DNA of 42,193 nucleotides from Chiloscyllium plagiosum. Taxonomy: Eukaryota. This document shows, piece after piece, positions 11,864 to 38,698 of the stretch. The notes beneath the pieces were generated by a model. The model had not been told where the DNA came from. It saw only the letters and a program-made list of their open reading frames with translations, and searched no databases. The stretch covers positions 9,822,456 to 9,864,648 of the forward strand of contig NC_057758.1 in assembly GCF_004010195.1 (NCBI RefSeq). Direction: 5' to 3'. A program made the position numbers and the translations under genes. How positions within the stretch are numbered: position 1 is the first letter of the stretch; each line of letters starts with the position of its first letter.

Positions 11864-12575
11864 GATGTTTCAAGCATGAACTCTTCATCAGGAATGAGAG
11901 GGTTCCAAAAGAGCTGAGAGATAAATGGGAATCGACATTGATCTCGTGTAGTTGGAGGGTCTCTAGGTGGAAGGTGAGGCGTTGATTAGGGTGTAGCCCA
12001 GGATTTGCAGTCCTGGAGGAGGCCCAGGATTTGCAGCCCTTGTCAGAGTGGGAGGGGAGTTGAAGTGCTTGGCCATTGGGTACTGAGGTAGTTTAGTGCA
12101 TGTGTCCCAGAGATCTTCTCTGAAACATTCCATAAGTTGGCATTCTATCTCCCCAGTGTAGAGGAGACTACATCAAGAGCAACTGACACAGTTGGTAATA
12201 TGTATGGAGGTGCAGGTAAATCTCTGTCAGATGTGGAATGATCCTTTCAGGCCTTGGATGGAGGTGAGGGGGGGGAGATGTGGGCGCAGGTTTTGCACCT
12301 GTTGCAGTGGCAAGGGAAGATGCCAGGAGTGGAGGGTGGGTTGGTGGGGAGGGGAAGGGGGCACGGACCTAACAAGGGAGTCACGGAGAGAATGGTCTCT
12401 GCAGAACGCAGATAGGGGTGAGGGAGAAAATATATCCTCAATGGTGGGGCCTGTTTGTAGCTGCTGGGAATGGCGGAGGATGATGAGTTGTATCCAGAGA
12501 TTGGTGAATTGGAAGGTGAGGACTGGGGGTTTCTGGGGGGCGATTGGAGGGGTGGGGCTCAAGAGTATAGGAGTT
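11864..12575 (-). mobile_element. Penelope-like retroelement 3' fragment (GIY-YIG region plus hammerhead remnant)
   Basis: Minus-strand peptides FPCHCNRCKTCAHI, SIQGLKGSFHI and RFTCTS...CSLLYTGE, followed by CTGATGA-A-GAGT-TCAT-GCTT-GAAA-CATC at 11864-11891. Confidence 0.8.
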
Positions 12576-12579
12576 GGGA

Positions 12580-13153
12580 AGTCATGTTGAGGTTGTAGAG
12601 GACATTGGAGAGACCTCTTCTGGAATATTGTGTCCAGTTCTGGTGGCCCAGTTATAGAAAGAATATTTTTAAGCTGGAGAGGGTTCAGAAGAAATGTACC
12701 AGGATGTTGCTGGGCATGGAAGGTTTGAAAGAAAGGCTGGATAGGCTAGGACTTTTTTCACTGGAGCGCAGAAGACTGAGAGGCAATCTGAGAGAAGTTC
12801 ATAAAATAACGAAAGGTATAGATTGAGTTAACAGTAGTTGTCTTTTCCCTGGAATGGGTGATTTCAAGACCAGGGAGCTTATTTTTAAGGTGAGAGGAGA
12901 GAGATTTAAAAAAGACGAGAGGCAAATTTTTACACAGAGGATAGTTCATGTGTGGAATAAGTTTCCTGAGGAAGTGGTGGATGTGGGTACAATTATAACA
13001 TTTAAAAGACATTTAGATAGATACATGAATAGGAAAGGTTTGGAGGGAGATGGGCCAGGAGCAGGCAGGTGGGGCTAGTTTAGTTTGGGATTATTTCGGC
13101 ATGGGCTGGTTGGACCGAAAGGTCTGTTTCCGTCCTGTATGACTCTATGACTC
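12580..13153 (+). mobile_element. CR1 LINE 3' fragment
   Basis: RPLLEYCVQFWWPSYRK...LGLFSLERRRLRG...WNKFPEEVV; tail ATGACTCTATGACTCT. Confidence 0.9.
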
Positions 13154-13650
13154 TCCCTATAGCTCAAACCCTCCAACGTAGGCAACGTCTGAATTCTTTC
13201 AAGTTTAACAAGATCCTTCCTATAGCAGAGAGACCAGAATTGAATGCAGTATTTCAAAGTGGCCTAATTAATACCCTATACAGCCTCAACATGACATCCC
13301 AACTCCTATACTCAATGCACTAACCAATAAAGGCAAGCATACCCAACACCTTCTTCACTATCCTACCTACCTGTGACTCCACCTTCAAGGAACTATGGAC
13401 CTGCACACCAAGGTCTCCTTGCTTGGCAACATCCCCCAAGATCCAAACATTAAGTGTATTAGTCCTGTCCTGATTTCCACTACCAAATGCAGTACCTCAC
13501 ATTTATCTAAATTAAACTCCATCTGCCACTCCTCAGCTCTCGGGCCATCTGGATCAAGGTCCCAGTGTACTCTAAAATAACCTTCTTCAGTATCCACTAC
13601 ACCACCAATTTTGTGTCACCTACAAACTTACAAACTATTCCTCCGATATT
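13154..13650 (-). mobile_element. CR1 LINE ORF2 internal fragment
   Basis: WQMEFNLDKCEVLH and YCIQFWSLCYRKD on the minus strand. Confidence 0.85.
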
Positions 13651-13924
13651 CGCATATTTATGGAGCCGCCTTCTCCAGTGAGCTATGTAATTGTCCATCA
13701 CCATGCAACACAGTTTGTGGCAGGACTGCAGAGCTCAGATCTGATCTGTTGGTTGTGTGATTGTTTAGCTCTGTCTATCACTTACTGCTTCTGCTGTTTG
13801 ACATGCACATGGTCCTGTTTGGTAGCTTCATCAGGTTGACATCTATCTCATTTTTAGGCTTACCTGGTGCTGCTCCTGGCATACCACCTGCACTGTCCAT
13901 TGAACCAGAGTTGATACCCTAGAA

Positions 13925-14159
13925 GGAGAAACTGAGGATTGCAGATGCTGGAGATCAGAGTCAAAAAGTGTGGTGCTGGAAAAGCACAGCCAGTCAGGCA
14001 GCATCTGAGGAGCAGGAGAATCAACGTTTCGAGTATAAGCGTTTCAACAGGAATATGTCCACATTCCTGATGAAGAGCTTGTGCTCGAAACATTGACTCT
14101 TCTGCTCCTGGGATGCTGCCTGACTGGCTGTGCTTTTCCAGCGTCACAATCTTTGATGC
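13925..14159. mobile_element. Palindromic Penelope-derived short insertion (hammerhead family B) inside a LINE relic
   Basis: Inverted arms; hammerhead core 14067-14094; imperfect TSD TTGATACCCTAGAA (13911-13924) / TTGAACCCCTAGAA (14160-14173). Confidence 0.8.
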
Positions 14160-14683
14160 TTGAACCCCTAGAATGATTGGAAAAATTGAGTGGGGGATAT
14201 GCTGGGCCGTGAGGTTGCAGACTGTGTTAGTGTATGATTCTGCTGCAGTTGATGGATCATAGTGCCTCATGGATGACTGGTGAAGATGAGGTCAAGTATG
14301 TTTTCAAGTACGTTGTTTTCCTGAGCACTGGCTCAAACCCAGTCTAGCAGCTACATCTTTCAAAACTTAGCCAACTGATTCACCAACAGTGCTCCTGAGT
14401 CACTCTTACCTGTGACAGCTCCAAAATTCTGCAGCCTTCTCACCCTCAGTGCACACTCCAAGTGGTGTTCATCAGCAAATGAAGGGACTTTGCAGTACCT
14501 GGCCATCAGCCAAAAGGGTTCTTGTCCTGTGTTTGACATTTAAAGAGTCAGGAATTGGGACAGGACATAATAGGGGATGATGTTGGTGGTGTAAATATGA
14601 TTCTGTGAGTACAAATCAGTCAGATTGCTCCTGGAACAGTCTGTGAGACAGGACTCCCAGATGTCAAGACAGCTAGAGACTAT

Positions 14684-15283
14684 TGGAGGGTCAGTGCTGA
14701 GGAAGCTCCACATTTAAAAGGTCAGTGCTGACGGAGCGCCACACTGTTGGAGGGTTAGTGCTGAGGGAGAGCTGCACTGTTGGAGGGTCAGTGCTGAGGG
14801 AGGGCTGCACTGTTGGAGGGTCAGTGCTGATGTAGTGCTGCACTGTTGGAGGGTCAGTGCTGAGGTAGCGCCGCACTGTTGGAGGGTCAGTGCTGAGGGA
14901 ATGCCGCACTGTTGGAGGATCAGTGCTGAGGGAGGGTTGCACTGTCGGAGGGTCAGTGCTGAGGGAGGGCTGCACTGTCGGAGGGTCGGTGCTGAGGGAA
15001 TGCCACACTGTCAGAGGGTCACTGCTGAAGGAATGCTGCACTGTTGGAAGGTCAGTGCTGAGGGAGGGCTGCACTGTTGGAGGGTCAGTGCTGAGGGAAT
15101 GCCGCACTGTTGGAGGGTCAGTGCTGAGGAAGCTCCACATTTAAAAGGTCAGTGCTGAGGGAATGCCGCATTGTTGGAGGGTCAGTACTGAGGGAATGCC
15201 ACACTGTGGGAAGGTCAGTGCTGAGGGAGCGCCACACTGTTGGAGGGTCAGTGCTGGTGGAATGCTGCACTGTCAGAGGTTCA
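14684..15283. repeat. Second array of the 33-bp GGGTCAGTGCTGAGG minisatellite
   Basis: Same unit as 9388-10040, about 18 units. Confidence 0.95.
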
Positions 15284-15960
15284 GTTACAGACTGGAAACT
15301 AATTTGGGGATAAGGCTTATTAATATACAATGATGCCCAGGAGTGAGTTCAGTGAGTGCTATTTACAAAATAACAGAGACCAAAGAGAATGTTACAGAGT
15401 GGAATGTAATTGAAGGGTTCAGGAAATTTATATATAGAATAACAGATACCCAGGAGTGAGTTACAGACTGGAATCTAATCGAGGAGTTCAGGGTGGTTGA
15501 TGTGTACAATAACAAATACCTGAGAATGAGTTACAAACTGGAATTTGATCGAGGGATTCAAGGTGATTTAAATATAAAATTACAGATACCTAGAGCAAGT
15601 TACAGACCAGAATCTACTAGGAGAAAGTGAGGACTGCAGATGCTGGAGATCAGAGCTGAAAATGTGTTGCTGGAAAAGCGCAGCAGGTCAGGCAGCATCC
15701 AAGGAGCAGGATTCCTGAAGAAGGGCTCATACCCGTAACGTCAATTCTCCTGCTCCTTGGATGCTGCCTGACCTGCTGCGCTTTTCCAGCAACACACTTT
15801 CAGCTCAGACCAGAATCTAATCAAGGGATTTCAGGGAGGTTTATTTATAAAACAACAAATACCTGAAAGTGAGTTACACGAATGGAATCTAATCAAGGAG
15901 TTTAGGGAGGTTTATAATTAGAATAACAGATTCCCGGGAGTGAGTTACAGACTAATTGAA
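15284..15960. repeat. About 70-bp degenerate tandem repeat (GAGTTACAGACTGGAATCTAATC...AATAACAGATACC)
   Basis: Unit anchors at 15458, 15528, 15597, 15871 and 15942; interrupted by an insertion at 15617-15805. Confidence 0.85.
15617..15805. mobile_element. Palindromic Penelope-derived short insertion (family B) with 14-bp TSD
   Basis: TSD CAGACCAGAATCTA at 15603-15616 and 15806-15819; inverted arms; degenerate hammerhead CTGAAGA-A-GGGC-TCAT-ACCC-GTAA-CGTC. Confidence 0.88.
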
Positions 15961-17226
15961 TCCTACCCGTCTGCCGGCAGGATTGTTGGAAATCCCGAGC
16001 AAGTGGGTGGGCTGCCTCTCTGGGTGTTCCAGTCACGCTCTCCTGCTGCCATTGCCCTGTAATGACTCAGACAATGAATAGCTAATCTATTGGGTTCTGC
16101 GGTTTCATAGCCCACAATCTGGCCCATCACTGACTCTGGAGAAACACAACCTGGGAGTGTCAGCATCAGGGGAAGCCAAGTTTGCGACTTAATGCTGAGG
16201 GCTGCCCTTTGAATGAACTCACTCAGTGCCCAACAAACAAGGCGTGTCTACAAATGAATTAATCACTGTCATTACTTTCCAAGTGTAGGCCTGCACGACA
16301 GCCCCTCTGTGATTTCTGTTTTTTTCTCATTATTATCTGCTTCATTTTTCATTCTGGACACGTAGGTAAGTGTGCATTTGATGCTACCGAAGTTACCGAG
16401 CAGTGGCTAAAGGTGCAAATAACATAAAAGAGACACTCGCCCAACACCCCCAATTTGTGGACTTGCTGCTCCACTTGTGACATCTCAACCCGCAGCAGGA
16501 TCCTCTTCTCCCTCATTTTCGAGTTCCCTTCAAATGTCTCCAAACAATTTCCATTTGAAGGAGCGAGTTCCACAGTTGCCTCCCCCTTGCTACTCATCAC
16601 TGGCTGAAGAGCCTTCTCAAATTCCCCATTGCTAACTGCCTAATGTCAATGGTCTACCATTCTGTGACACACCTCAGGGATAGGTGAGCCTTAAACATGG
16701 ATCTCCTGGCTCACAGGTACATTACAACTGCACCACAACAGCTGGGCCTCCATTATTAGCAAAAAGAGGAAGCATTCTCTCTCAATTCACTTGATAAAAA
16801 GCTTTCATCATTTAAAGAGCCATAGGAGGTTGTTCTTCAGCATTCTTGTTCCAAAGCAGAACTAGTCTGTCAGTTCTTTCCTGATGTGCAAGGTCATTCA
16901 TGTCTGATATCTTCCTCCTAAAACCTCCCTCCCCTGTGTCTCGCTATCCATTTATTATGTGGCAACTAGACCACAAACCATATCTAAGTGTGATCCAACC
17001 AAGGTTCAATACCAGTTCAACATAAACTTCCCTTCTTTCCAATTCCACTTCAGAATTGTATAAGACTAAAATAAAAGGCCTATAATTTTGCAGAAATAGC
17101 AGTAAATATGAGGATTGGGTGGTTTATAGAACACAGCAAAGAAGGAACCAAGAAGCCAGTCTTTGTCAGCATGTTCTGTTGTTAACTGGAAAGTTGGTGA
17201 TTCAAGACCACCCAGGACAGAGCGCA

Positions 17227-17552: not shown

Positions 17553-17595
17553 GACAAGGAAAAGGCAAATAGAATATGAATGCAATCTAACAAAA

Positions 17596-17740: not shown

Positions 17741-17779
17741 ATAAGAACAGAAAAATGGACTGTAAAGCTTCCATTGTTA

Positions 17780-20240
17780 CATAAAAAGGAAATGTTTGGC
17801 TAAAATGAATGTGGGCCCATTACAAGCAGAACCAGGAGAATTCATAACAGGGAACAGAAAAAGGAAGAACTAAGAAATGGCAAAGAAGCTAAAGACATAT
17901 TTTGTGTCTATCTTCACAGAGGAAGACACAAGAAGTCTCCCTGAAATAAATGGCCTAGTGAAAGAGTGGAACCTCAAATAATTTCTATTCATTATAAAGC
18001 AGCAATGGAGAAATGAATAGATCTGAAAATTGACAAATCCTCAAGATCTGATGACCTTCACCTGGAATAGTTCCTGCAGCTCAGAGGGTTGCTAATGTAA
18101 CCCCACTGTTTCAAGAAAGGAGAGAAACCGGAGTGCTACAGACTTGTCAGCTTAATATCAGTCTTAGGGAAAATGCCAGAATCTGTTCTAAAGGATATGA
18201 TTATTGGATATTTAGAAAATAATTGGCTGATTGGGCGGAGTCAACATAGATTTATGAAGTGGAAATCACATTTGACAAATCTACCAGTTTTGTTTCGGAT
18301 GTTACCAGCAGAGGTTATAGGGGGAAGACCCGTGGATGTAATGTAATTGGATTTTCAGAACACTTTTGAAAAAAATCACAGACAGGAGTTTCACAATCAT
18401 AATTTGGGCAGATGGGATTGTGGTGGTATACTAGTGTGGTGGTGGTGTACGAATGTGGTGGTAGTATACAAGTGTTGTGGTGGTATACTAGTGTGGTGGT
18501 GGTATACTAGTGTGGTGGTATACTGGTGTGGTGGTGGTATACTGGTGTTGTGGTGGTATACTAGTGTGGTGGTGGTATACTGGTGTGGTGGTGGTGTACG
18601 AATGTGGTGGTAGTATACTAGCGTTGTGGTGGTATACTGGTGTGGTGGTGGTATACTGGTGTTTGGTGGTATACTGGTGTGGTGGTGGTATACTAGTGTG
18701 GTGGTGGTATACTAGTGTGGTGGTGGTATACTGGTGTTGTGGTGGTATACTGGTGTGGTGGTGGTATACTAGTGTTGTGGTATACTAGTGTTGTGGTGGT
18801 ATACTAGCGTTGTGGTGGTATACTAGTGTTGTGGTGGTATACTAGTGTGGTGGTGGTATACTAGCGTTGTGGTGGTATACTAGTGTTGTGGTGGTATGCT
18901 AGTGTGGTGGTGGTGGTATACTGGTGTGGTGGTGGTATACTGGTGTTGTGGTGGTATACTGGTGTGGTGGTATACTGGTGTGGTGGTGGTATACTAGTGT
19001 GATGGTGGTATACTAGTGTGGTGGTGGTATACTAGTGTGATGGTGGTATACTAGTGTTGTGGTGGTATACTGGTGTGGTGGTGGTATACTGGTGTGGTGG
19101 TGGTATACTAGTGTTGTGGTGGTATACTAGTGTGGTGGTGGTATACTGGCGTTGTGGTGGTATACTGGTGTGGTGGTGGTATACTGGTGGTATACTAGTG
19201 TTGTGGTATACTAGTGTTGTTGTGGTATACTAGCGTTGTGGTGGTACACTAGTGTGGTGGTGGTATACTAGTGTGGTGGTGGTATACTGGTATTGTGGTG
19301 GTATACTGGTGTGGTGGTGGTAAACTAGTGTTGTGGTGGTATACTAGTGCTGTTGTGGTATACTAGCGTTGTGGTGGTATACTAGTGTGGTGGTAGTATA
19401 CTAGTGTTGTGGTATACTAGCGTTGTGGTGATATACTAGTGTGGTGGTGGTATACTAGTATTGTTGTGGTATACTAGTGTGGTGGTGGTATACTAGTGTT
19501 GTTGTGGTATACTAGTGTTGTGGTGGTGGTATACTAGTGTTGTTGTTGTATACTAGTGTGGTGGTGGTATACTAGTGTTGTTGTGGTATACTAGCGTTGT
19601 GGTGGTGGTATACTAGTGTGGAGTGAGGATTGGTTAACAACAAAAAGCAATGAGTAGGAATAAATGGGTCAACCTCAGGTTAGCAGGCTGTGACCAGTGG
19701 GGTACTGCAAGGAACAGTGCTTCGATGGATGTAGAATAGATGGGAGTGATGGAGGACTGATCTGGGAAACTGCAGCGTTGATTTTGGAGGGTGCAGGGTT
19801 GATTTGGACAGGCTGAGTGAGTGGGCAAATGCCTGACAGATGCAGTTTAATGCAGATCAATGTGAGGTTATTCACTTTAGTAGCAAAAACAGGAAGGCAG
19901 TTTGTTGTCTGAATGGCGATTGATTGGGAAAGAGGGCGATGCAATAAGACTTGGACGTCCTTATACATCTGTCACTAAAAGTAAGCATGCAGGCAGTGAA
20001 GAAGGCAAATGGTATGTTAGCCTTAATAACGAGAGAAATAGAGTGCAGGAGCAGGGATGTCTTGCTGCATTATACTGGGCTCTGGTGAGACTGCTCCTGG
20101 AATATTGTGTGCCTTTTTGATCTCCTTTTATGGTGAAAGATGGTCTGCCAATGGAGGGAATACAGAGAAAGTTTACCAGATTGATTCCTGGGGAGGTAAG
20201 ACTGACATATCAGGAGAGACATATGAAGAGAAATGATAGA
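17780..20240 (+). mobile_element. Old CR1 ORF2 relic split by an internal satellite expansion
   Basis: RT-region motifs on both sides of the array: GCTAATGTAACCCCACTGTTTCAAGAAAGG and DFQ..F before it, ALVRLLLEYCVPF after it. Confidence 0.75.
18418..19621. repeat. About 19-bp minisatellite (GTGTGGTGGTGGTATACTA)n with 16- and 22-bp variants
   Basis: About 1.2 kb of direct tandem units with strong G/T strand skew. Confidence 0.97.
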
Positions 20241-22161: not shown

Positions 22162-22661
22162 NNNNNNNNNNNNNNNNNNNNNNNNNNNNNNNNNNNNNNN
22201 NNNNNNNNNNNNNNNNNNNNNNNNNNNNNNNNNNNNNNNNNNNNNNNNNNNNNNNNNNNNNNNNNNNNNNNNNNNNNNNNNNNNNNNNNNNNNNNNNNNN
22301 NNNNNNNNNNNNNNNNNNNNNNNNNNNNNNNNNNNNNNNNNNNNNNNNNNNNNNNNNNNNNNNNNNNNNNNNNNNNNNNNNNNNNNNNNNNNNNNNNNNN
22401 NNNNNNNNNNNNNNNNNNNNNNNNNNNNNNNNNNNNNNNNNNNNNNNNNNNNNNNNNNNNNNNNNNNNNNNNNNNNNNNNNNNNNNNNNNNNNNNNNNNN
22501 NNNNNNNNNNNNNNNNNNNNNNNNNNNNNNNNNNNNNNNNNNNNNNNNNNNNNNNNNNNNNNNNNNNNNNNNNNNNNNNNNNNNNNNNNNNNNNNNNNNN
22601 NNNNNNNNNNNNNNNNNNNNNNNNNNNNNNNNNNNNNNNNNNNNNNNNNNNNNNNNNNNNN
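22162..22661. other. Assembly gap (500 N)
   Basis: Run of exactly 500 N; the round number suggests a placeholder of unknown true size. Confidence 0.99.
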
Positions 22662-22790
22662 CAAAGTCCATTACTCACCAAACTCCCTTACTCACCAAAC
22701 CTCCATACTGACCAAACTCCATTACTCACCAAACTCCCTTGTCACCAAACTCTCTTACTGACCAAACTCCCTGACTCATCAAACTCCCTT
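22662..22790. repeat. 17-bp tandem repeat (CAAACTCCCTTACTCAC)n abutting the gap
   Basis: About 7.5 visible units starting at the gap edge. Confidence 0.9.
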
Positions 22791-23113
22791 CCTGATGAAG
22801 GGCTTATTTCCGAAACGGCTGATTCTCCTGTTCCTCAGATGCTGTCTGACCTGCTGTGCTTTAGCATACACTCTTGACTCTGATCTCCAGCATCTGCCAT
22901 CCTAGTTGAGTTCAGCCTTACTGCGATGCCTCTTCCAAGGATGACTACGTTGAAGAAGTTTTCCTCTCTCTACAAAGATCTCAGTGAGTCTCTCTCTTAC
23001 TGTACTCCCCAAATCCTCTTTCTGATGAAGGGCTTGTGCCCGAAACATCGATTCTCCTGCTCTTCGGATGCTGTCTGATCTGCTGTGCTTTTCCAGCACT
23101 ATGTTCTCGACTC
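22791..23113. mobile_element. Two tandem Penelope terminal-repeat fragments (family B) with hammerhead cores
   Basis: CTGATGAAGGGCTTATTTCCGAAACGG at 22792 and CTGATGA-A-GGGC-TTGT-GCCC-GAAA-CATC at 23022-23049, each followed by the family B arm. Confidence 0.8.
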
Positions 23114-24139: not shown

Positions 24140-24545
24140 CCACACACACACAAGCGTACGGGGGTGGTGTTGGAATCAGAATGAAGGACAGTGATCATGT
24201 TGAACTCAGTGTTAAGTCCTGAAGGCTGTAAAGTATCAAAATGAAAAATGAAGTGGTGTTCGCTCAGCTTGCATTCAGCCTCACTGAAACACAATAGCAA
24301 GCCCCAGGATGGAAACATTTCCATGAGAGGGGATGGTGTGTTTAAATAACAAGCTACTGGAAGATCTGGGTGTAAGCGAACGATCAAGTGTAACACCTTC
24401 TGTCATTGGATGGGAAGGTGCCAAGATGAGAGGTGGATGGGGAAGTTTTAGTGATATAGGACTGGACAAGGGTGTCACAAAGGGAAAATTCCCTGTGGAA
24501 TGCTGACAGTGGACAGGAGTGGAAGATATGTTTGGTGTTGATATT
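24140..24545 (-). mobile_element. Penelope-like GIY-YIG C-terminal relic
   Basis: LPVACYLNT...GLLLCFSEAECKLSEHHFIFHFDTLQPSGLNTEFN, homologous to 30020-30285. Confidence 0.75.
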
Positions 24546-25139
24546 CCCCTCTCCACCATAGCACCTCCCTATTTCCTCCCATTCACTATCATTTACATCT
24601 ATTTTACCTCCGGATCCCTCCTTTATTACCATCAGCTCTCCCTTTGCTTTGGGCAGTGAGCACCTCACCATCTGCTCCACTTGCTCCTCCATCCTGTCTG
24701 TCAACAATATAAAAGCCATCATTTTCCAGGCCCCTTGAGATGAGGAGAAATGTATTCACCCTCATGATTTTAGGGGGTCAAACCTTCAGGAATCTCTCTT
24801 TAAACGGACCTTTACCATTAGAAACTCTTTTTAAAAAGTCTTGCACAAGTATACTTTGATAATTAGCTTAATACATCTTCCACTATAAATAATTCACTGT
24901 CAGGAATCTTCCATTAACCCAATGATTTACTCAGTATAGCTGCTATCAATAACAGCTCACCTTCCTGTAGAACACCAATAAATATATTCAGATAGATTCA
25001 GTATTAATACATTGACTATCACCAAACCACTCTGTCTCACAGGTACCAACTTATTATTGCAAATTTGAGCTGACCAGAAAGTTTCAGGTCTAGTTTTTAG
25101 GTTCCTGGTAAATCTCAACAATAGAATAGCAAACGTAGA

Positions 25140-25460
25140 GCACTCTCTCAATACTGCCCCTCCAACATCCCCTCAGTAGTAACCCTCCCCAAACTCCCTC
25201 AATACTGCCTTTCCAACATCCCCTCAGGAATAACCCTCCCCCTACTCTCTCAATACTGTCCCTCCGAAATCCCCTCAGTAGTAATCCACCCCATACTCCC
25301 TTAATACTGCCCCTCCAACATCCCCACAGGAGTAACTCTCCCCATATTCCCTCAGTACTGATCCTCCAACATCCCCTCAATACTGACCCTCCAACACTCC
25401 CTCAGTATTGATTCTCCAACACTCCCTCGGTAGTAATTCTCTCACGATTCCTCAGTAGCC
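25140..25460. repeat. Degenerate reverse-oriented relative of the CAGTGCTGAGGG minisatellite
   Basis: Repeated CCCTCAGTA / AATACTGCCCTCCAACATCCCCTCAG units. Confidence 0.75.
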
Positions 25461-25915: not shown

Positions 25916-26283
25916 CAAACCAGTATTTGGGATTTCGAGACAATTTGTTGCTTTGCGAAGAACATTTTTTTTTCAAAAAGAGCCCATCTCTCTCCAAATT
26001 TAATGATTTCAATGTTTGTTTTTGCTATGATGAAATTTGCTGTGATGAGTCAAATGGCCTTCCTTAGCACCACAACAGTTCAGTAATTCTGGGAATTTTA
26101 AATTCACTTCTGAATTATTACATGCAGTTACCACAGCCACTAGACCGTCATTATCATGCCAATGGTCTGCTAAACACATTAAGTGTCATATTTTTGAGGG
26201 TGAGGGTGGTATTTCCAAATGCACAGAGACGAATTTCACCCAGCTTCAGCCCAGTGCCCAGTGTTCATCTACATGAAGGGCCC

Positions 26284-26372
26284 CTGATGAAGGGTTTATG
26301 CCTAAAACATTGATTCTTCTGCTCCTCGGATGCTGCCTGACCAGTTGTGCTTTTCCAGCAACATACTCTCAG
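26284..26372 (+). mobile_element. Single-arm Penelope family B fragment with degenerate hammerhead
   Basis: CTGATGAAGGGTTTATGCCTAAAACATTGATTC followed by the family arm. Confidence 0.75.
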
Positions 26373-26766: not shown

Positions 26767-26985
26767 GAGGAGAAAGTGAGGTCTGCAGATGCTGGAGATC
26801 AGAGCTGAAAATGTGTTGCTGGAACAGCGCAGCAGGTCAGGCAGCATCCAGGGAACAGGAGAATCGACGTTTCGGGCATAAGCCCTTCTTCAGGAACTGA
26901 AGAAGGGCTTATGCCCAAAACGTCAATTCTCCTGTTCCCTGGATGTTGCCTGACCTGCTGCGCTGTTCCAGCAACACATTTTCAG
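26767..26985. mobile_element. Palindromic Penelope-derived short insertion (family B) with 15-bp TSD
   Basis: TSD CTCTTTGTTAACTTT at 26752-26766 and 26986-27000; near-perfect inverted arms of about 90 bp meeting at about 26895. Confidence 0.9.
26862..26897 (-). ncRNA. Minimal type-I hammerhead ribozyme motif (family B), intact core
   Basis: Minus strand UUC-CUGAAGA-A-GGGC-UUAU-GCCC-GAAA-C-GUC-GAUU. Helix I is weak. Confidence 0.7.
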
Positions 26986-27990
26986 CTCTTTGTTAACTTT
27001 CACTTCCTCTCTCTGTTTCACTATCTTTATGAATCTCATTGGTTTCTTACTGCTCATTCTCTCTCTTTTGTTTTTTGTTCTCTTCCTCCCTGTCTCTGTG
27101 ATTATATCTCATGCTGTAATTCTTATATCTAAGCCTCACGCAATCAGATAGTGAGCATTGTAAGTGCTGGGCTAGTTTCTGCATTCCATCACTCATTGTT
27201 GCTTGCTTCGCTGAGTGACTTCAAGGACTAGCTCTGAATTATATCTCCTGCCAGTTCCAAACAAGATGGTGAGCAAGCTGCACGTGACTCAGGCAATATT
27301 ATAAAGCAGGATGACATTGTTTGTGTGAGTTTGTTTGAAAGTGAGCCTCAACTACAATACGTTAACATGATCCTGACTGCTGTCCGGCTCCATTCTTCCT
27401 CCTCACCATGACCCCTCCTGGAGATCCATTCCTTTCTCAGTAAGTATTATCATAAAGATTGATAGTGAATGCACATTCTCCCTCTGCTCCCCCTCTACCA
27501 TTGCTCTGGCAAATCCAGCCTCCCACCCCAGGACCTCTCCTCCCTCTGATATCACATCCTACCTATCAGCAACAGATCTTCAGACAGTTAATACACTTGA
27601 AAAATGTGGGCTATTTGCTATTAATTGTAACCTTGAGTAGTCACGGTTTCCTTGCACTATCAGTGTCTCTGTAATCAGCAGCAGAAAGTACCACCTGGCT
27701 TCTGGTTATTAAAGACAGAAGTGAAAGATATAATAAGCTGTGATGGAGCTGCATGTGGCTGGGAGGTGTAGCATCTCCTGTTTGCAATCCAATAAAACAG
27801 GAATGGTAACAAGCAGAGAAGAAACAGCAACACCGTGTTTCTGAAACTCTCTGGAATGTAAAGAATGAAATATATAAAAATTTCATTGAGAGCTTGACAG
27901 GATTGATGCTGAGGGTCATATCCTCTGGCTAGAGAGACTGGAATGCAGGGGAGGAGAGAACAGTCTCAGAATAAGGGGACAATAATTTAG

Positions 27991-28110: not shown

Positions 28111-28162
28111 CAGTTAAAAATCACACAACACCCAGTAATAGTCCAACAGATTTATTTGGAAG

Positions 28163-28197
28163 CACTAGCTTTCGGAGCGCTGCTCCTTCATCAGGTG
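28163..28197 (-). ncRNA. Minimal type-I hammerhead ribozyme motif (family A), fully intact, within Penelope terminal fragment 28112-28200
   Basis: Minus strand CAC-CUGAUGA-A-GGAGC-AGC-GCUCC-GAAA-G-CUA-GUG: helix I CAC/GUG, 5-bp helix II, AGCU palindrome for a dimeric helix III. Confidence 0.8.
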
Positions 28198-28298
28198 ATT
28201 GTACTGACAGGGAAGTCAAAAACAAGCAGGTCGAAGCCAAAACTGGAAATTAATGCAAAGGCTCAGTAGGTCGGGCAGCATCCATGAGGAGAAATCAG

Positions 28299-28336
28299 AG
28301 TTAACATTTCGAGTCTAGTGACCTTTCCTCAGAACT
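28299..28336 (-). ncRNA. Minimal hammerhead motif (family C), partly decayed
   Basis: Minus strand AGUU-CUGAGGA-A-AGGUC-ACUA-GACUC-GAAA-U-GUU-AACU: helix I AGUU/AACU. The helix II closing pair is mismatched. Confidence 0.65.
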
Positions 28337-28720
28337 GATGGTAGCTAGGAAAAAGATTTTATGCAGACAATAGGATGAGGGGAGGGGGTAAGGAATAAAT
28401 GATAAGTGGAGGTAGAGTTCAGAGAGACGAAATTGATTTGGATGTGAGCTTAAGAGGCACAGTTAGCAAGTTTGCAGATGACACCAAAATTGGGGTGTAG
28501 TGGACAGCGAAGAAAGTTACCTCAGATTACAACAGGATCTTGATCAGATGAGCCAATGGGCTGAGGAATGGCAGATGGAGTTTAATTTAGATAAATGCAA
28601 GGTGCTGCATTTTGGGAAAGCAAACCTCAGCAGGTCTTATACACTTAATAGTAAGGTCTTAGGGAGTTTTGCTGAACAAAGAGACCTTGGAGTGCAGGTT
28701 CATAGCTCTGTGAAAGTAGA

Positions 28721-29037
28721 TTAGATTACTTACAGTGTGGAAACAGGCCCTTCGGGCTAACAAATCCACACCGACCCGCCGAAGCACACCCACCCAGACC
28801 CATTCCCCTACATTTACCCCTGCATCTAACACTACGGGCAATTTAGCATGGGCAATTCACCTAACCTGCATATTTTTGGACTGTGGGAGGAAACCGGAGC
28901 ACCCGGCGGAAACCCACGCAGACACGGGGAGAACGTGCAAACTCCATACAGTCAGTCACCTGAGGTGGGAATTGAACCCGGGTCTCTGGTGCTGTGAGGC
29001 AGCAGTGCTAACCACTGTGCCACTGTGCCACCCACAA
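28721..29037 (-). mobile_element. Full-length HE1-like V-SINE inserted into CR1
   Basis: Splits TGAAAGTAGA|GTTGCAGGTAG, which is uninterrupted in the minus-strand copy near 32985-33006. A/B boxes, V-domain and (TCTAA)n tail present. Confidence 0.92.
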
Positions 29038-29646
29038 GTTGCAGGTAGGTAGGATAGTGAAGAAGGCATTTGGTATGCTTTCCTTTATTGGTCAGAGTAT
29101 TGAGTACAGGAGTTGGGAGGTTATGTTGCGGCTGTACAGGACATTGGTTAGGCCACTGTTGGAATATTGTGTGCAATTCTGGTCTCCTTTCTATCGGAAA
29201 GATGTTGTGAAACATGAAAGGGTTCAGAAAAGATTTACAAGGATGTTGCCAGGGTGTGAGGATTTGAGCTATAGGGAGAGGTTAAATAAGCTAGGACTGT
29301 TTTCCCTGGAGCATTGGAGGATGAGGGGTGGCCTTATAGAGGTTTATAAAATCATGAGGGGAATGGATAGGGTAAATAGACAAAGTCATTTCCCTCGGGT
29401 GGGGGAGTCCAGAAATAGAGGGCATAGATTTACTGTGAGAGGGGAAAGATATAAATGAGACCTAAGGGGCAACATTTTCATGAGGAGGGTGGTACGTGTA
29501 TGGAATGGGCTGCCAAAGGAAGTGGTGGAGGCCGGTACAATTGCAACATTTAAGAGGCATTTGGATGGGTATATGAATAGGGCTGGCAGGTGGGACTAGA
29601 TTGGGTTGGGATATCTGGTCGGCATGGACGGGTTGGACCAAAGGGG

Positions 29647-29747
29647 TTCTGGATTAGTGGTGCTGGAAGAGCACAGCAGTTCAGCCAGCATCCAAGGAGC
29701 TTCAAAATCGACGTTTCGGGCAAAAGCCCTTCATCAAGGATAAAGCA
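29647..29747 (-). mobile_element. Single-arm Penelope family B insertion in the CR1 3' UTR
   Basis: Interrupts TTGGACC.AAGGG|TCTGTTTC; minus strand TTGATGA-A-GGGC-TTTT-GCCC-GAAA-CGTC. Confidence 0.8.
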
Positions 29748-29785
29748 AGGGTCTGTTTCTGTCCTGTACATCTCTATGATTCTAT

Positions 29786-30285
29786 AACAGTTGGACAGAC
29801 AAATGAATAGATAACAATCAGTCTGAGAGAATGAATAGCCACTAATGAGGACAGTTAGTGGCTAACAATGGGCTGTGTGTAATAGCAAACCAGGTAATAA
29901 CAAGGCCTGGAGAGAAGGTTAGATGTGACTTTTTGAAATGACTGGCAGGAAGGGAAAGGTGGTGGGGTTGCATTATTGGTACAGGGTAAAGTAAGCACAA
30001 CAGCAAGAAATGTTCTTGAATTAGTTATACTCAAAACTGAGTCCGGAAGACTAGAGTTCCCAAGCGGAAAAATGAAATGCTGTTCTTCCAGCTTGTACTG
30101 AGCTTCGCTGGAGCACTGCAGCAAGCCTGAGACAGAGGTGTTGGCCAGGGAACAGATGGTGTGTTGAAGTGGCAGGCAACTGGAAGCTCAGGGTCTTTTT
30201 TGCAGACAGAACGTATGCGTTCTGTGAAGCGGTCACCCAGTCTGCGCTTCGTTTCCCCAATGTAGAGGAGACCACATTGTGAATC
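29786..30285 (-). mobile_element. Penelope-like retroelement: GIY-YIG endonuclease C-terminus and 3' region
   Basis: Manual minus-strand translation from about 30283: SQCGLLYIGETKRRLGDRFTERIRSVCKKDPELPVACHFNT, then LQCSSEAQYKLEEQHFIF. Confidence 0.88.
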
Positions 30286-30299
30286 ACTATGATCTTGTA

Positions 30300-30450
30300 C
30301 TATAAATTCTGTGTCTTATGACCTTGCCCCTGATAAAGGAGCAGTGCTCTGAAAGCTAGTGCTTCCAAATAAACCTGTTGGTCTATAACCTGGTGTTGGA
30401 TGATTTTTAACTTTGTCCATCCTAGTCCAACACTGGCACCTCCTCATCAC
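30300..30450 (+). mobile_element. Penelope family A terminal fragment with mutated hammerhead
   Basis: CTGATAA-A-GGAGC-AGT-GCTCT-GAAA-GCTAGTG from 30330; reverse complement of 28112-28195. Confidence 0.8.
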
Positions 30451-32316: not shown

Positions 32317-32319
32317 GAA

Positions 32320-33920
32320 CATAGAACATACAGTCATAGAGATGCACAGCATGGAAACAGACCCTTCCGTCCAACCCGTCCATGCCGACCAGATATCCCA
32401 ACCCAATCTAGTCCCACCTGCCAGCACCCGGCCCATATCCCTCCAAACCCTTCCTATTCATATACCCTTCCAGATGCCTTTTAAATGTTGCAATTGCACC
32501 AATCTTCACCATGTGCTCTGGCAGCTCATTCCACACATGTACCACCCTCTGAGTGAAAAAGTTGCCCCTTAGGTCTCTTTTATATCTTTGCCCTCTCACC
32601 TTAAACCTACGTCCTGTAGTTCTGGACTTCCCCACCCCAGGGAAAAGACCATGTCTATTTACCCTACCCATGCCCTTCATGATTTTATAAACTTCTATAA
32701 GGTCACCCCTCCGCCTCCGACGCTGCAGGGAAAACAGCCCCAGCCTGTTCAGCCTCTCCCTGTAGCTCAGATCCTCCAACCCTGGCAACATCCTTGAAAA
32801 TCTTTTCTGAACCCTTTCAAGTTTCACAACATCCTTCTGATAGGAAGGAGACCAGAATTGCACGCAATATTCCAAAAGTGGCCTAACCAGTGTCCTGTAC
32901 AGCCGCAACATGACCTCCCAACTCCTGTACTCAATACTCTGACCAAGAAAGGAAAGTATGCCAAATGCCTTTTTCACTATCCTATCTACCTGCAACTCTA
33001 CTTTCAAGGAGCTATGAATCTTCACTCCAAGGTCTCTTTGTTCAGCAACACTCCTTAGGACTTTACCATTAAGTGTATAAATCCTGCTCTGATTTGCAGC
33101 ACCTCTCGTTTATGTAAATTAAACTCTATCTGCCAGTCAAGATTAGAGTGGTGCTGGAAAAGCACAGAAGGTCAGACAGCATCTGAGAAGCAGGAAAATC
33201 AATGTTTCAGGCAGGGGACCTTCATCATTCCTAATCTTGTCTCTGATCTCCAGCACCAGGGAATCTAATCCTATCTAATCTAATCTGCAGTCCTCACTTT
33301 CTCCATCTGCCAGTCCTCAGCCCATTGGCCATCTGATCAAGATCCCATTGTAATCTGAGGTAATCTTCTTTGCTGTGGCACCATGTTAGCCAACCTCCAG
33401 TCTTCCGGCACCACATCTGTGACTATCGATGAACTTCTAGTTGCACCAACAATCACTTCCCTAGTTTTCCACAGAGTTTTAGGGTACACCTGATCAGGTG
33501 CTGGGGATTTATCCACTTTTATGTGTTTGAAGACATCCAACACCTCCTCCTCTGTAATATGGACATTCTTCAAGATGTCGCCATCTATTTCCCCACATTC
33601 TATATCTTCCATGTGCTTTTCCACAATAAACACTGATGCAAAACCCTTGTTTAGTTTCTTCCCATCTCCTGCCGCTCCATACAAAGGCCACCTTGCTGAT
33701 CTTTGAGGGGCCCTATTCTCTCCCTAGTTACCCTTTTGTCCTTAACATATTTGTAAAAATCCTTTCGATTGTCCTTAACACTATTTACCAAAGCTATCCC
33801 ATGTCCCCCCTTTTGCCCTCCTGATTTTCCTCTTAAATATACACCTACTGCCTTTATACTCTCCTAAGGATTCACTCGATCTGTCCTGTCTATACCTGAC
33901 ATACGCTTCCTTCTGTTTCT
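32320..33920 (-). mobile_element. Relatively young CR1 LINE fragment (205-aa open ORF2 C-terminus), internally deleted
   Basis: LYRTLVRPLLEYCVQFWSP...NFFTQRVVHVWNELP; upstream KSPAPDQVYPKTL...VPEDWRLAN. Confidence 0.92.
33139..33300. mobile_element. Penelope family B insertion with 15-bp TSD inside CR1
   Basis: CTCTATCTGCCAGTC (33124-33138) / CTCCATCTGCCAGTC (33301-33315); contains a short AGGGAATCTAATC SINE-tail piece. Confidence 0.75.
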
Positions 33921-34077: not shown

Positions 34078-35565
34078 AATAGAACAGTACAGTACAGTGC
34101 AGGTCCTTCAGCCCTCAACGTTGTGCCGACCTTTTATCCTACTCTAAGATCAAACTACCTTTCATTTTACTATCATCCATGTGCCTTTCCAAGAGTCGCT
34201 TAAATGTCCCCAATATATCTGACTCTACTACCACTGCTGCAGTGTGATCCACGCACCCACCACTCTGTGTAAAGAAGCTCCCTCTGACATCTCCCCTAAA
34301 CCTTTCTCCAATCACCTCACAATTATGCCCCCTCAAGATAGCCATTTCCACCATGGGAAAAAAGTCTCTAGCCATCCATTCTATCTATGCCTCTCATCAT
34401 CTTGCACACCTCTTTAAAGTCACCTCTCATCCTCCTTCGCTCCAATGAGAAAAGCCCTAGCACCCTCAACCTTTCTTCATAAGACATGCCCTCCAGCATC
34501 CTGGTAAATCTCATCTGCACCATCTCTAAAGTTTCCACATCCTTCCTATAATGAGGCGACCAGAACTGAACACAATATTCCAAGTGTGGTCTAGCCAGGG
34601 CTTTGTAGAGCTGCAGCATAATCTCGCGGCTCTTAAACTCAATCCCCCTGCTAATGAAAGCCAACGCACCATATGCCTTCTTCACAACCCTATCAACTTA
34701 GGTGGTAACTTTGAGGGATCTATTATTGTGGACCCCAAGGTCTCTCTGTTCCTCCACACTGCCAAGAATCCTGCCTTTAACCCTGTAATCTGCACTTAAA
34801 TTTGACCTTCCAAAATGCATCACTTCACACTTTTCCAGGTTGAACTCCATCTGCCACTTCTCAGCCCAGCTCTGCATCCTGTCAATGTTCCATTACAGCC
34901 TACAACAGCCCTCCACACTATCCACAACTCCACCAACCTTTGTGTCATCGGCAAGCTTACTAACCCACATCTAAGTAATTTATAAAAATCATAAAGAGCA
35001 GAGGTCCCAGAACAGATCCCTGTACAACACCACTGGTGACCAAGCTCCAGGCTGAATACTTTCCATCTACTATCACCACCCTGTGTCTTCTATGGGCCAG
35101 CCAATTCTGTATCCAGACAGCCAGGTTTCCCTGTATGCCATGCCTCCTTACTTTCTGAATGAGCCTACCATGGGGAAACCTTAACAAATGCCTTGCTAAA
35201 ATCCATGCACACCACATCCACTGCTCTACCTTCATCAATGTGTTTTGTCACATCCTCAAAGAATTCAATAAGGTTTATGAGGCATGACCTGCCTTCAGAA
35301 AGCCATGTTGACTATTTTTAATCAAACAATCCTTTTCCAAATAATCATAAATCCTGTTTGTCAGAATTCTCTCCAATAATTTGCCCACAACCGACGGAAG
35401 GTTAACAGGCTATCCCAATTCCCTTTCTTGAACAAGGGAATAACATTTGCCACCCTCCAATCATCTGGTACTACTCCAGTGGATAGTGAGGACACAAAGA
35501 TCATTGCCAAAGTCGCAGCAATGTCTTCTCTCGCTTCCTGTAGTAAACCTTGGGTATATCCCATC
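34078..35565 (-). mobile_element. CR1 LINE ORF2 3' portion of a second subfamily
   Basis: [65 protein letters not shown]; tail (GTACT)n. Confidence 0.92.
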
Positions 35566-35599
35566 TATCCTCATGTTTTTCAAAATTTCCAGCACCCAA

Positions 35600-36655
35600 A
35601 ATTTTAAGGTGAAACCACACCTGGAGTATTGTGTAGAACTTGGTCCCCCTATACAAGAAAGGATAGACTTCCCATACAGGAAGTGTACCAAAGGTTTATT
35701 AGACTGATGCATGGAAGGATAGGATTGTCATATGAGGAGAGATTGCTTTAACTGGGCCTGTGTTCACTGGAGTTTAGAAAAATGAGAGGTAATCTTGAAA
35801 TGTGCAAAATTCTGAGAGGGCTATACAGACTGGATGAGGGTGATGTTCCCTTGGCCAGAGTGTCCAGAACAAAGGGTCACAGTTTAAGGACAGAGGGTAG
35901 GTCAATTTGGACTGAGATGAGGAGAAATATATTCACTCAAAGGATGGTGAGCCTGTGGAATTCTCTACCGTAGAAGGTTGTAGAGACCAAGTAAATGAAT
36001 ATATTTAAGAAAGAAATAGATTTCTACAAATTTTGGCATGCCTGTCTTCATTGGTCAGAGCACTGAGTACAGGAGTTGGGATGTCATGTTATGGTTGTAA
36101 AAGACACTGGTAAGGCCATATTTAGAGTACTGCGTTCAATTCTAGTCCCCCTGCTATTGGAACAATCTTACTAAACTGGAGAGGATGCAAAAAAAAAGAT
36201 TTACAAAGCTACTACCAAGACTGAAAGTTTTGAGTTATAAGAAGAGATAGGATAGGCTGTGACTTTTCGCCCACTGTGAGAGGAGGCTGAGGGTGACCTT
36301 GTAGAGGTTTAGAAAATCCTGAGGAACATAGATAAGGTGAATAGCCAAGGTCTTTTCCCAGGGTAGGGGAGTCCAAAACTAGAAGACATGGGTTTAAGGT
36401 CAGAGGGTGAAGATTTAAAAAGGACCTGAGGGGCAACTTTTTCACACACAACCTGGTGTGTATATGGAACAAGCTGCTAAAGGAAGTGGTAGAAGCAGGT
36501 ACAATTACAACATTTAAAAGACATTTGGACAGGTACATGAATAGGAAAAGTTTTGAGAGGTATGGACCAAATGCAGGCAAATGGGACTAGTTCGGTTTAG
36601 GAAACCCAATCAGCATGGGTCAAAGGGTCTCTTTTTGTGCTAAATGACTCTATGA
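35600..36655 (+). mobile_element. Two successive CR1 3' fragments
   Basis: KPHLEYCVE and EMRRNIFTQRMVSLWNSLP (to about 36025); second copy about 36030-36655 ending ATGACTCTATGAC. Confidence 0.85.
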
Positions 36656-36915
36656 CATTGCTGTGGGTCTGCAGTCACATGTAGACCAGACCAGGTAAGG
36701 ATGGCAGATTCATTCCCTAGAGGACAGTAGTGAACCAGGTGGATTTCACCAACAATTGACAATGGATTCCTGGTCATAGTTACACTTGATTCCAGATTGT
36801 TATTGAATTCAAATTCGACCATTTGCCCTGGTGGGATTCAAACCTGTGTCCCCAGAATATTACCCGGATCTCTGGGTTAACAGTTCACCGATAATGCACT
36901 AGGGCCATCATCCCC
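36655..36915 (-). mobile_element. tRNA-headed SINE 5' portion
   Basis: Reverse B-box GGGATTCAAACC; colinear with the intron-2 copy at 3430-3785. Confidence 0.65.
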
Positions 36916-37597
36916 CACTTCACGGGTCTGCCACACATTATTCCACTGGTAAGGTTAAGCTGTGTGTTACTTGACCCTATACTCTAACAGGCATTGATAT
37001 CTTCTCATTAACCTGTTTGGAGATGTTATTACACACCTCTGGAGCATGTGAGACTTGAATGTGGGCCTCCCGGCTCAGAGGTTCAGACACCACCACTGCA
37101 AGAGAGTTCCCTTAACCAAGCATATCCTGAGGTCAGTTAAAGTCTACAGCTGGGGGTTAGAAATTGAAAGTGAGAAATTGAAACAGAGGGTCAGGAAACA
37201 GCAGGTAGTGACTGGCCTTTATTATCTGTTTTTAATATTGAAACAATTAAAATGTGACATCTGGAATGTAGCTAATTAAAGAATAATACGTCCAGAAGCA
37301 GATTTTTTCATGGTGATGCTCATGTGATTTATAGTTAAGGTGTCAGTTGGGAATTATGCCACTAGTCAGCGTGTTAGTCTGAAACTCATAGGGCTTGATG
37401 CATGTAAGTATTTTACTAATGAATCTCACCACCAAAGCTCGGGTAAGGAGTCATCTGTGATTGTCTGAAGAATCACAATGATACTTCACATCTGTTGGAA
37501 GGCATGCAGTTGTGGCTGGTCAGTCATGCACCAGTAATTCCTTATTAAGTTTTTATTTCCAGATCAAAAGCAAAGAATTGCCTGCCTTTTCTTTTTT

Positions 37598-38225
37598 AGT
37601 CATACAGTCATAGAGATGTACAGCACGGAAACAAACCCTTCGGTCCCACCCATCCATGCCGACCAGATATCCCAACCCAATCTAGTCCCACCTGCCAGCA
37701 CCCGGCCCATGTCCCTCCAAACCCTTCCTATTCATATACCCATCCAAATGCCTCTTAAATGTTGCAATTGTGCCAGCCTCCACCACATCCTCTGGCAGCT
37801 CATTCCATACACGTACCACCCTCTGCGTGAAAAAGTTGCCCCTTAGGTCTCTTTTATACCTTTCCCCTCTCACCCTAAACCTATGCTCTCTCGGTCTGGA
37901 CTCCCTCACCCAGGGAAAAGACTTTGTCTATTTATCATATCCATGCCCCTCATAATTTTGTAAGCTTCTATAAGGTCACCCCTCAGCCTCCGATGCTCCA
38001 GGGAAAACAGCCCCAGCCTGTTCAAATCCTCCAACCCTGGCAACATCCTTGTAAATCTTTTCTGAACCCTTTCAAGTTTCACAACATCTTTCCGATAGGA
38101 AGGAGACCAGAATTGCACACAATATTCCAACAGTGGCCTAACCAATGTCCTGTACAGCCGTAACATGACCTCCCAACTCCTGTACTCAATACTCTGACCA
38201 ATAAAAGAAAACATACCAAATGTTT
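37598..38225 (-). mobile_element. Young CR1 3' fragment
   Basis: Very similar to 32330-32970. Confidence 0.92.
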
Positions 38226-38271
38226 TTTAAAGGACAGGTTGCTTTATAGCCAAGTGTGATATCTGGATAGT

Positions 38272-38698
38272 CTTGAATTGGAGATGCCGGTGTTGGATTG
38301 GGGTGTACAAAGTTAAAAATAACACAACACCCCAGTTTCATTACAGTTTCTACCTTACTGTTGTTAGAATACGGAATGGACTCACAAACTTTTAACATTT
38401 GCCTGTACCTGTGTTTTTGTTTTTGTTGCTGTTTACCTATTATTTACTTGTCTGTGCTACTTCACTCTGTGATCTGCCTGTATTGCTCGCAAGACAAAGC
38501 TTTTCACTGTCCCTCAGTACACGTGACAATAAATTCAATTCATTTCAGTTCATTTCAACACCAGGTTATAGTCCAACAGGTTTATTTGGAAGCACTAGCT
38601 TTCAGAGTGCTGCTCCTTCATCAGGTGGCTGCTCTGAAAGCTAGTGCCTCCAAATAAACCTGCTGGACAATAAGCTGGTGTTGTGTGATTTTTAACTT
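38272..38698. mobile_element. Palindromic Penelope family A insertion with 12-bp TSD and a nested LINE tail
   Basis: TSD TATCTGGATAGT at 38260-38271 and 38699-38710; hammerhead on the minus strand at 38593-38627. Confidence 0.88.
38332..38555 (+). mobile_element. 5'-truncated non-CR1 LINE 3' end (Rex1/Babar-like, tentative) with 7-bp TSD
   Basis: TSD CAACACC at 38325-38331 and 38556-38562; ends AATAAA + (TTCAA/TTCAT)n. Confidence 0.7.

Follow-up and report, generated by a model that had tools for sequence, protein, structure and literature searches.

This study concerns a 42,193-nucleotide stretch of the Chiloscyllium plagiosum genome (hereafter the window; NC_057758.1, positions 9822456-9864648, in a genome of 3.56 Gb), in which a sequence-only reading had listed 13 minimal hammerhead ribozymes. 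Our analyses revealed that these motifs represent new families of the minimal hammerheads of Penelope-like elements (PLEs), of a known kind, extreme in copy number and mostly dead passengers. We put at about 0.7 the probability that the copies are stubs derived from the pseudo-long terminal repeats (pLTRs) of several GIY-YIG PLE families, likely generated by priming of the reverse transcriptase (RT) inside the leader of an uncleaved RNA, with run-off at its 5′ end.

Identity of the motifs

Throughout, positions are numbered relative to C3 of the hammerhead (position 0), with the predicted cut at +28 to +30, and the strict descriptor is CUGANGA, a stem II of at least 4 bp and GAAA-N-N′-U-H. In 589 kb of genomic DNA from elsewhere, this descriptor matched 33 times, and in each of five shuffled sets 0 times. 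In the window it found three intact sites (C3 at 26893, 28194 and 38624, all on the minus strand), where 100 dinucleotide shuffles averaged 0.02 sites and never exceeded 1. The core from C3 to A9 and from G12 to A15.1, together with U16.1 and H17, is present in all nine family majority sequences. An extra base follows A9 (A in families A, B, C and E, U in D), and the first pair of stem II is G-C in all nine. Around this core the stems vary: read from the family majorities, the first pair of stem I is C-G, U-A or A-U and the second U-A, A-U or C-G, while stem II differs in both sequence and length. The loop-less helix III palindrome is ACGU in B and D2 and AGCU in A, and the majorities of C, D1 and E hold a CpG-decayed ACGU. 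On these comparisons, the motifs are recognizable as minimal type-I hammerheads, with a fixed core and covarying stems across families A-E.

Among the sampled copies that span the hammerhead, 113/207 retain the 11 core bases together with H17. When folded alone, stems I and II lie within about 1 kcal/mol of the best fold in 3/4 intact copies; helix III requires a second molecule, and its duplex contributes only -1.7 to -2.5 kcal/mol. An Rfam search, which the sequence-only reading had put forward as a way to recover the motifs, did not detect them: no hammerhead model was among the five matches up to an E value of 5 in the window. The matches to MIR2118, MIR845_1, mir-3127 and snoR125 are the palindromes and that to mir-3533 (6611-6694) is an actin exon, all below cut-off.

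Families A, B and C had been described as unrelated in their stems. Families B and C are in fact related, because a block downstream of the cut is common to both; family A is separate. Families D1, D2 and E were found elsewhere in the genome. D1 and D2 copies (for example L043, L094, L188 and L196) have a longer stem II and the extra U after A9 and, unlike A-C, rarely begin at the 5′ border of the ribozyme; the end of the D2 open reading frame (ORF) is presumably Poseidon-like. Family E resembles B. Subfamily B2 (L040, L032, L047, L049, L201, L223) is nearly invariant, with a perfect 4-bp stem I as against the U.U mismatch in B1, B3 and B4, and is the best candidate for a cleavage assay.

Link to Penelope-like ORFs

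Loci retrieved with the GIY-YIG relic of the window often carry a family C hammerhead on the same strand, about 470-620 nt past the YIG motif. In the window itself, a single element comprises the relic at 30038-30282, the stretch 29786-29909 and, beyond a 1.36-kb insertion of other repeats, the C hammerhead at 28332. This colinearity rules out family A as the owner of that relic. The GIY-YIG of family A itself lies about 0.9 kb upstream of its hammerhead and is colinear with it at L133, L138 and L148, and the A copy at 30330 therefore abuts a foreign ORF. Two copies had been said to adjoin or be linked to GIY-YIG relics. The relic beside the A copy at 30330 is that of the family C element, and the B copy at 11891 is linked to a relic at 12053-12502.

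Near-full-length B1 elements begin with the hammerhead, which is followed by about 100 nt, the 34-nt tail and the ORF, with its ATG at about +162; the stub sequences match the leader of the ORF-bearing elements. The layout inverted pLTR, ORF, tailed pLTR is seen in L261 and L265, placing a hammerhead at both ends of ORF-bearing elements. RT motifs were recognized by eye in L265, and the Pfam GIY-YIG model matched homologues P0002 and P0003 with an E value of 8e-4, below cut-off; on the relics of the window and the loci, Pfam found no PLE domain. Open frames of 930 and 880 aa proved to be N gaps, not intact ORFs. A CxxxxCxxC linker is present in the window relic at 12053-12502 and in L103 and L265, and was not seen for family A. 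A zinc-finger-like linker between RT and endonuclease (EN) is a feature of Neptune elements (Craig et al. 2021, PMC8557442; this and the other published sources are drawn on in part), and the linker motif points to families B and C being of Neptune type. Families A, B and C are each linked to a GIY-YIG ORF of Penelope-like type.

Two observations concern the B1 leader. In L289 (G000:C40), at about 230-90 nt ahead of the ORF anchor, a B1 leader gives way to a short piece of family C hammerhead before B1 sequence resumes with the ORF, which looks like a chimera of two families. The B1 tail at +112..+128 (L300, L272-L299) holds a pyrimidine tract followed by AG, which resembles a splice acceptor, upstream of the ATG; no spliced joint at this site was found in the reads, and the donor was not identified.

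Copy number

The genome was sampled in 140 stretches of 10 kb, placed blind at even spacing on contigs C1-C49 (1,340,951 non-N bases). Copies were detected by the part downstream of the cut only, for which a reversed database gave 0 matches; this detection leaves 3′ ends at the cut outside the reach of the sample. The sample holds 378 pieces, or 282 per Mb (246-320), which make up 3.2% of its sequence, and 208 hammerhead-spanning copies, or 155 per Mb (95% bootstrap 132-178). Strict motifs number 40, 16 and 8 per Mb for a stem I of at least 2, 3 and 4 pairs, respectively. Extrapolated to about 3.4 Gb, the totals are about 0.96 million for pieces, 0.53 million for spanning copies and 28,000-140,000 for strict motifs. 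A very high genomic copy number, as proposed from the window, is supported by the density of hammerhead-spanning copies. About 4,000 motifs in coelacanth and 9,000 in Xenopus have been called remarkable (Cervera and De la Pena 2014, PMC4209133); the copy number here is extreme against these published high marks, with the proviso that the descriptors differ.

Anatomy of the insertions

Most copies are stubs of 90-130 nt that begin just before the ribozyme, most often 0-12 nt before CUGA, and not at the cut; a major class of inserts beginning at the cut was sought in the end map and not found. For families A, B and C, 125/339 copies have their 5′ end at -12..+3, only 11 start within the 33 nt preceding this zone, and the counts tail off downstream of it. 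The ORF-bearing B1 bodies show a similar start, with 14/50 beginning at -17..+16 and 25 spread over +43..+283. The 3′ ends form two clusters about 34 nt apart in every family, which correspond to the PLE tail, and public sequencing runs contain the same junctions at -4, +89 and +125. Solo stubs are primary insertions, because 12/57 are flanked by exact target duplications (control 0).

Another arrangement is the head-to-head pair. The sample contains 78 such pairs, accounting for 156/372 non-edge copies (42%), all within one family, against 5 tail-to-tail neighbours. One arm is tailed and the other tail-less in 71/78 pairs (38.8 expected, P = 7e-15), and target duplications of 10-21 nt, typically about 14 nt, flank 35/78 (control 0). 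The arms share subfamily letters, with a discordance in B of 0.135 against 0.41 when shuffled; an origin of each pair from two different RNAs is not supported, as the arms are concordant save for 3 mildly discordant pairs. The arm that reaches the start is the long one in 26 pairs and the short one in 41. An inverted 5′ copy, a tail of 30-40 nt and a target-site duplication are therefore all present, as in an EN-containing (EN+) PLE. Tandem hammerhead units were absent from the 14 Tandem Repeats Finder rows in the window, and the sampled copies are single or head to head.

Mechanism of stub formation

This anatomy would be expected if the endonuclease made a staggered cut at the target and each DNA end primed at one of two RT start sites on the RNA. 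Both cDNAs would then run to, or towards, the 5′ end of the RNA, which would be the transcription start and is probably capped, and repair would join the two cDNAs head to head. Stub formation would need no ribozyme cutting. The ribozyme would be selected only in active elements, where its cutting would be slow, relying on dimerization through the 4-nt palindrome or on the protein of the element, and confined to a minority of the RNAs. For an anole PLE in vitro, both strands are cut and extended, reverse transcription begins at two internal positions that delimit the tail, inserts are made from uncleaved RNA, and the hammerhead needs protein in order to cut (Frangieh et al. 2024, PMC11167929). 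In our copies, most inserts run through the cut and therefore had uncleaved templates. A non-templated G, a possible cap signal, precedes -4 in 13/19 B copies (14/23 in another count, P = 5e-4); part of these Gs may come from the mirror arm.

The strongest competing explanation, which we nevertheless consider unlikely, is that the stubs are ordinary extreme 5′ truncations primed at the 3′ pLTR, the second arm arising by fold-back self-priming or from an antisense template, and the pile-up at -4 reflecting a polymerase stop or a junction preference. Self-priming has been proposed for head-to-head junctions (Arkhipova et al. 2013, PMC3846280), and fold-back agrees with the overlaps of 1-7 nt at many junctions as well as with the subfamily letters shared between arms; as the source of the second arm it is a serious competitor. 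Moreover, priming at the 3′ pLTR does occur, since 45/109 solo B copies extend upstream of -45. However, 0/109 solo B copies start between -45 and -13, a cliff unlike random truncation, and the ORF-bearing bodies pile up at the same place as the stubs. The excess of G at -4 and the finding that either arm may reach the start also speak against this explanation.

A more remote explanation holds that the stubs are an independent non-autonomous family, similar to short interspersed nuclear elements (SINEs) or retrozymes, whose dispersed copies are themselves transcribed, undergo self-cleavage and serve as templates for new copies, their ribozyme being maintained by selection. Stubs far exceed ORF starts, with a crude depth in one run of about 1e7 for the former and 3e4-2e5 for the latter, and tandem retrozymes derived from PLE pLTRs are described in a preprint, which reports them from one chondrichthyan (10.64898/2026.07.22.740005). 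Against this, the window lacks tandem hammerhead arrays, the stubs match the leader of ORF-bearing elements, and the core decays neutrally. The stub ends also lie away from the cut, unlike those of unit-length cleavage products, and the end map has already largely refuted such a family.

Several observations weigh against priming within a capped, uncleaved leader. The RNA reads, including run X19, show no pile-up of molecule ends, so that the transcription start is not placed; they derive from both strands, and 91% continue into unrelated sequence, mostly as read-through of stubs. The G signal is confined to -4, with 26/99 over -12..-3 where 27.9 were expected and no excess across the whole start zone, and a stricter small test gave 3/12. 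The identity of the arms fits fold-back copying equally well. A Pfam scan of the frameshifted relics, both homologues and loci, gave no RT domain, and the RT call is that of the motifs seen by eye. Finally, 5′ ends near the cut (22/339) slightly exceed a flat background (P = 0.015). We also considered RNA editing for the A>G differences in the reads; they are no evidence of editing, because a DNA-like run has them too.

Decay of individual copies

The C11.1-G12 step is a CpG, at which G12A removes the catalytic base and C11.1U keeps a G-U pair. Among the sampled copies, G12A occurs 37 times and C11.1U 40 times (P = 0.82). The non-CpG core positions hold 111 mismatches in 1940; base-matched downstream columns, after removal of the subfamily-diagnostic ones, predict 118.8 (P = 0.11; for B alone, P = 0.046). 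The raw contrast between core and flank in family B (3.7% vs 7.8%) is mostly due to subfamily differences. These counts indicate that single copies are decaying neutrally, and that selection held the core in the master elements, as judged from the family majorities, and not in the dispersed copies. A core no better conserved than its flanks, which had been named as grounds for rejecting the ribozyme, is thus found at the level of copies; the ribozyme itself is not refuted, as the core is fixed and the stems covary among the masters.

In addition, 42% of the pieces lie in palindromes predicted to form long hairpins, and for several of the listed copies the mirror arm is predicted to pair with the hammerhead. 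The least probable explanation, by our estimate, is that the dispersed copies serve the host as functional ribozymes acting on intronic or intergenic transcripts, adjacent copies perhaps forming dimers. Although 87/207 hammerhead-spanning copies retain the 11 core bases, H17 and the 15.2-16.2 pair, and the family B core is marginally better kept than the downstream columns, G12A is not depleted, overall conservation shows no excess, the hairpin-forming palindromes and the weak helix III duplex disfavour it, and RNA ends do not pile up. The proposal that the copies are self-cleaving modules is accordingly sound as regards their descent, as minimal hammerheads of PLEs, and is not supported for the individual copies, mostly broken (10/13) and decaying neutrally. 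The dispersed copies came along as passengers from active elements and do not amount to half a million working modules.

Cleavage in vivo and U6 chimeras

Only 6 of the 5′ ends lie exactly at the cut; neighbouring positions are equal, and there is no sharp peak. Joints with U6 provide another view of cleavage. From 48 listed U6 matches, 20 dispersed ones were taken, and the clustered ones, which are likely genes, were left out. U6 is joined to family B3 exactly at the cut in 2 of these 20 (L321, L335), the U tract blurring the joint by 1-2 nt, and 2 further copies (L331, L334) are apparently joined inside the PLE ORF, as judged by eye. A search with an exact pattern of a U tract joined at the family B cut had given 0 matches; that pattern was too strict, because the two cut-joined chimeras turned up later. 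Also by eye, many of the other 16 dispersed U6 copies precede repeats resembling SINEs or LINEs (long interspersed nuclear elements), and L322 is followed by tRNA-like sequence.

RtcB-type ligation needs a 5′-OH, which hammerhead cleavage yields. The U6/LINE-1 chimeras form by RtcB ligation (Moldovan et al. 2019, PMC6789731). Since this route is known for U6/LINE-1, the U6 joints at the cut suggest occasional real cleavage in vivo, although two loci are few. They resemble the U6/LINE-1 chimeras in that a full U6 is joined through a U tract to a 5′-truncated retroelement, and differ in that the partner is a PLE and that 2/4 U6-PLE joints lie at the predicted ribozyme cut (PMC6789731).

Copies in the window

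The motif, whole or damaged, is present at all 13 listed coordinates, and only 3/13 copies are intact. The minus-strand sites are real and had been given by their low end. Five pieces were absent from the original list (13934-14054-, 15620-15711-, 33135-33227-, 38274-38331- and 38631-38699+). The window is not unusually dense; with 18 pieces against 11.8 expected (P = 0.054), it is about average. Core substitutions affect 6/13 listed copies, and the helix III palindrome is lost by G16.2A in 3/13; they are named below with each copy.

Among the family B pieces, 11864-11891(-) is a hammerhead remnant with G16.2A (C3 11891), ending at H17 against an unrelated LINE-like repeat. Its end coincides exactly with the predicted cut, and no 3′ remainder turned up in the vicinity. 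It lies 3′ of a PLE ORF relic of family B type (11938-12550, -), with the CxxxxCxxC linker, a degenerate GIY-YIG and a partly deleted 3′ region, matched by P0002 in tblastn at 12053-12502 (E 1e-34). A head-to-head pair at 13934-14152 consists of a tailed arm (13934-14054, -) and a short arm (14059-14152, +), both with damaged hammerheads (C3 14050- and 14067+, the latter with G16.2A). In the B1 pair at 15620-15818, the tailed arm (15620-15711, -) has no hammerhead, and the arm 15711-15818(+) begins at -4 and carries A13U in the core (15715). A tailed stub at 22789-22903(+) starts at -3 and has U16.1G (22792); tail-less stubs lie at 23015-23099(+), with G16.2A and loss of the palindrome (23022), and at 26283-26370(+), with G12A (26284). 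The B1 pair at 26769-26989 is young, with a target duplication of 17 nt containing 1 mismatch; its tailed (-) arm has an intact hammerhead at 26866-26893, and its short (+) arm has G12A (26897-26924). The tail-less B3 stubs are at 29648-29745(-), within a LINE-like repeat and with C3U (29737), and at 33135-33227(-), which starts at +1 so that C3 is absent.

Family A is represented by a tail-less stub from -8 at 28112-28202(-), with an intact hammerhead (C3 28194), and by a head-to-head pair at 38274-38699, in which the (-) arm 38556-38627 has an intact core (C3 38624) and an apparent continuation past an insertion at 38274-38331, and the (+) arm 38631-38699 is partial. The 3′ end of the family C element lies at 28233-28427(-), with a damaged hammerhead (C3 28332; G10.1A and C15.2U, and stem II damaged). 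Its 5′ part, at 29786-30282(-), comprises the GIY-YIG relic (about 30038-30282) and the 3′ region, other repeats intervening at 28428-29785. A tailed A copy (30285-30449, +; -56..+119, with G8A at hammerhead 30330) is inverted and abuts the truncated 5′ end of this C element. At 30282/30285, an inverted A pLTR thus stands against a C element, one arm tailed and the other not, in a pair-like arrangement across families; a target duplication around this A-C unit was searched for and not found. The junction may be a chance adjacency or a cross-family template switch. A third PLE ORF relic, C-terminal, lies at 24217-24551(-) (tblastn E 1e-8 and 1e-7), and a hammerhead copy downstream of it was not found.

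As for the setting, an actin gene occupies about 2.8-7.4 kb of the window and dense repeats follow it, in a landscape that would suit a cartilaginous fish. The gene, of muscle type, is at 2761-7425(+) (Pfam Actin E 2e-40 on one exon). Minisatellites are at 9389-10026 (33 nt), 14679-15285 (33 nt), 18420-19621 (19 nt), 22662-22790 (17 nt) and 25142-25436 (25/51 nt), and an N gap is at 22162-22661.

Relation to known systems

The motifs resemble the minimal hammerheads found in the pLTRs of metazoan PLEs (Cervera and De la Pena 2014, PMC4209133) in their core boxes, the extra base after A9, the G10.1-C11.1 pair, the loop-less palindromic helix III and the short helix I. Also shared are the presence of several families per genome, mainly as single dispersed motifs, and neighbours on opposite strands. 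They differ in number, 8-40 strict motifs per Mb here as against the totals in coelacanth and Xenopus quoted above, under different descriptors. Helix II is 4-5 bp in A-C, unlike the 7-8 bp of Schistosoma (PMC4209133), and helix I of B1, B3 and B4 is 2 bp plus U.U plus A-U. Cartilaginous fish are not named in the examined parts of PMC4209133.

With the anole Poseidon element PAc (PMC11167929), these families have in common a hammerhead near the 5′ end of the unit, two RT start sites that define the tail, cutting as well as extension of both strands, and the use of uncleaved RNA for insertion. In contrast to PAc, B and C are Neptune-type by their linker, the B1 ORF begins after the tail (+162) and not inside the ribozyme, and the rule of one tail per pair and the 5′ pile-up were counted here from genomic copies. 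EN+ PLE insertions (PMC3846280, PMC8557442) likewise have an inverted 5′-truncated copy at the 5′ end, a 30-40-nt tail often at one end only, target-site duplications and partial tandems. Here, however, most consist of two pLTR stubs without an ORF, the duplications are about 14 nt and not 8-10, and there are hundreds of thousands of them. Like the non-LTR retrozymes (10.64898/2026.07.22.740005), the stubs are non-coding, carry hammerheads and come from PLE pLTRs; unlike those tandem arrays with a ribozyme per unit, they are dispersed singly or head to head.

Because the motif class and the insertion layout are already published, the listed copies are ordinary for this genome. A search of the literature for Penelope with shark or elasmobranch ribozymes, U6-Penelope hammerheads, and cap or twin priming, with subscription journals, Repbase and Dfam outside its scope, returned no description of this system.

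Conclusions

To conclude, about 3% of this genome consists of PLE ends that are unseen by ORF and Rfam scans, with palindromes that imitate precursors of microRNAs. With so many events, questions of PLE transposition become countable, such as the start point of the RNA, the origin of the inverted arm and of the one-sided tail, and whether the weak ribozyme ever cuts in vivo. We see an even chance that the genome is a half-million-event record of Penelope copying by twin-strand priming on capped, uncleaved leader RNA, in which each short palindrome marks one insertion, with one target strand primed at each of the two RNA start sites, and a minority of RNAs cut in the germ line was recorded by U6 ligation. 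If true, this would settle the origin of head-to-head PLE insertions and provide in vivo evidence for cutting by an animal minimal hammerhead. The copies matter mainly as a large fossil record of element copying.

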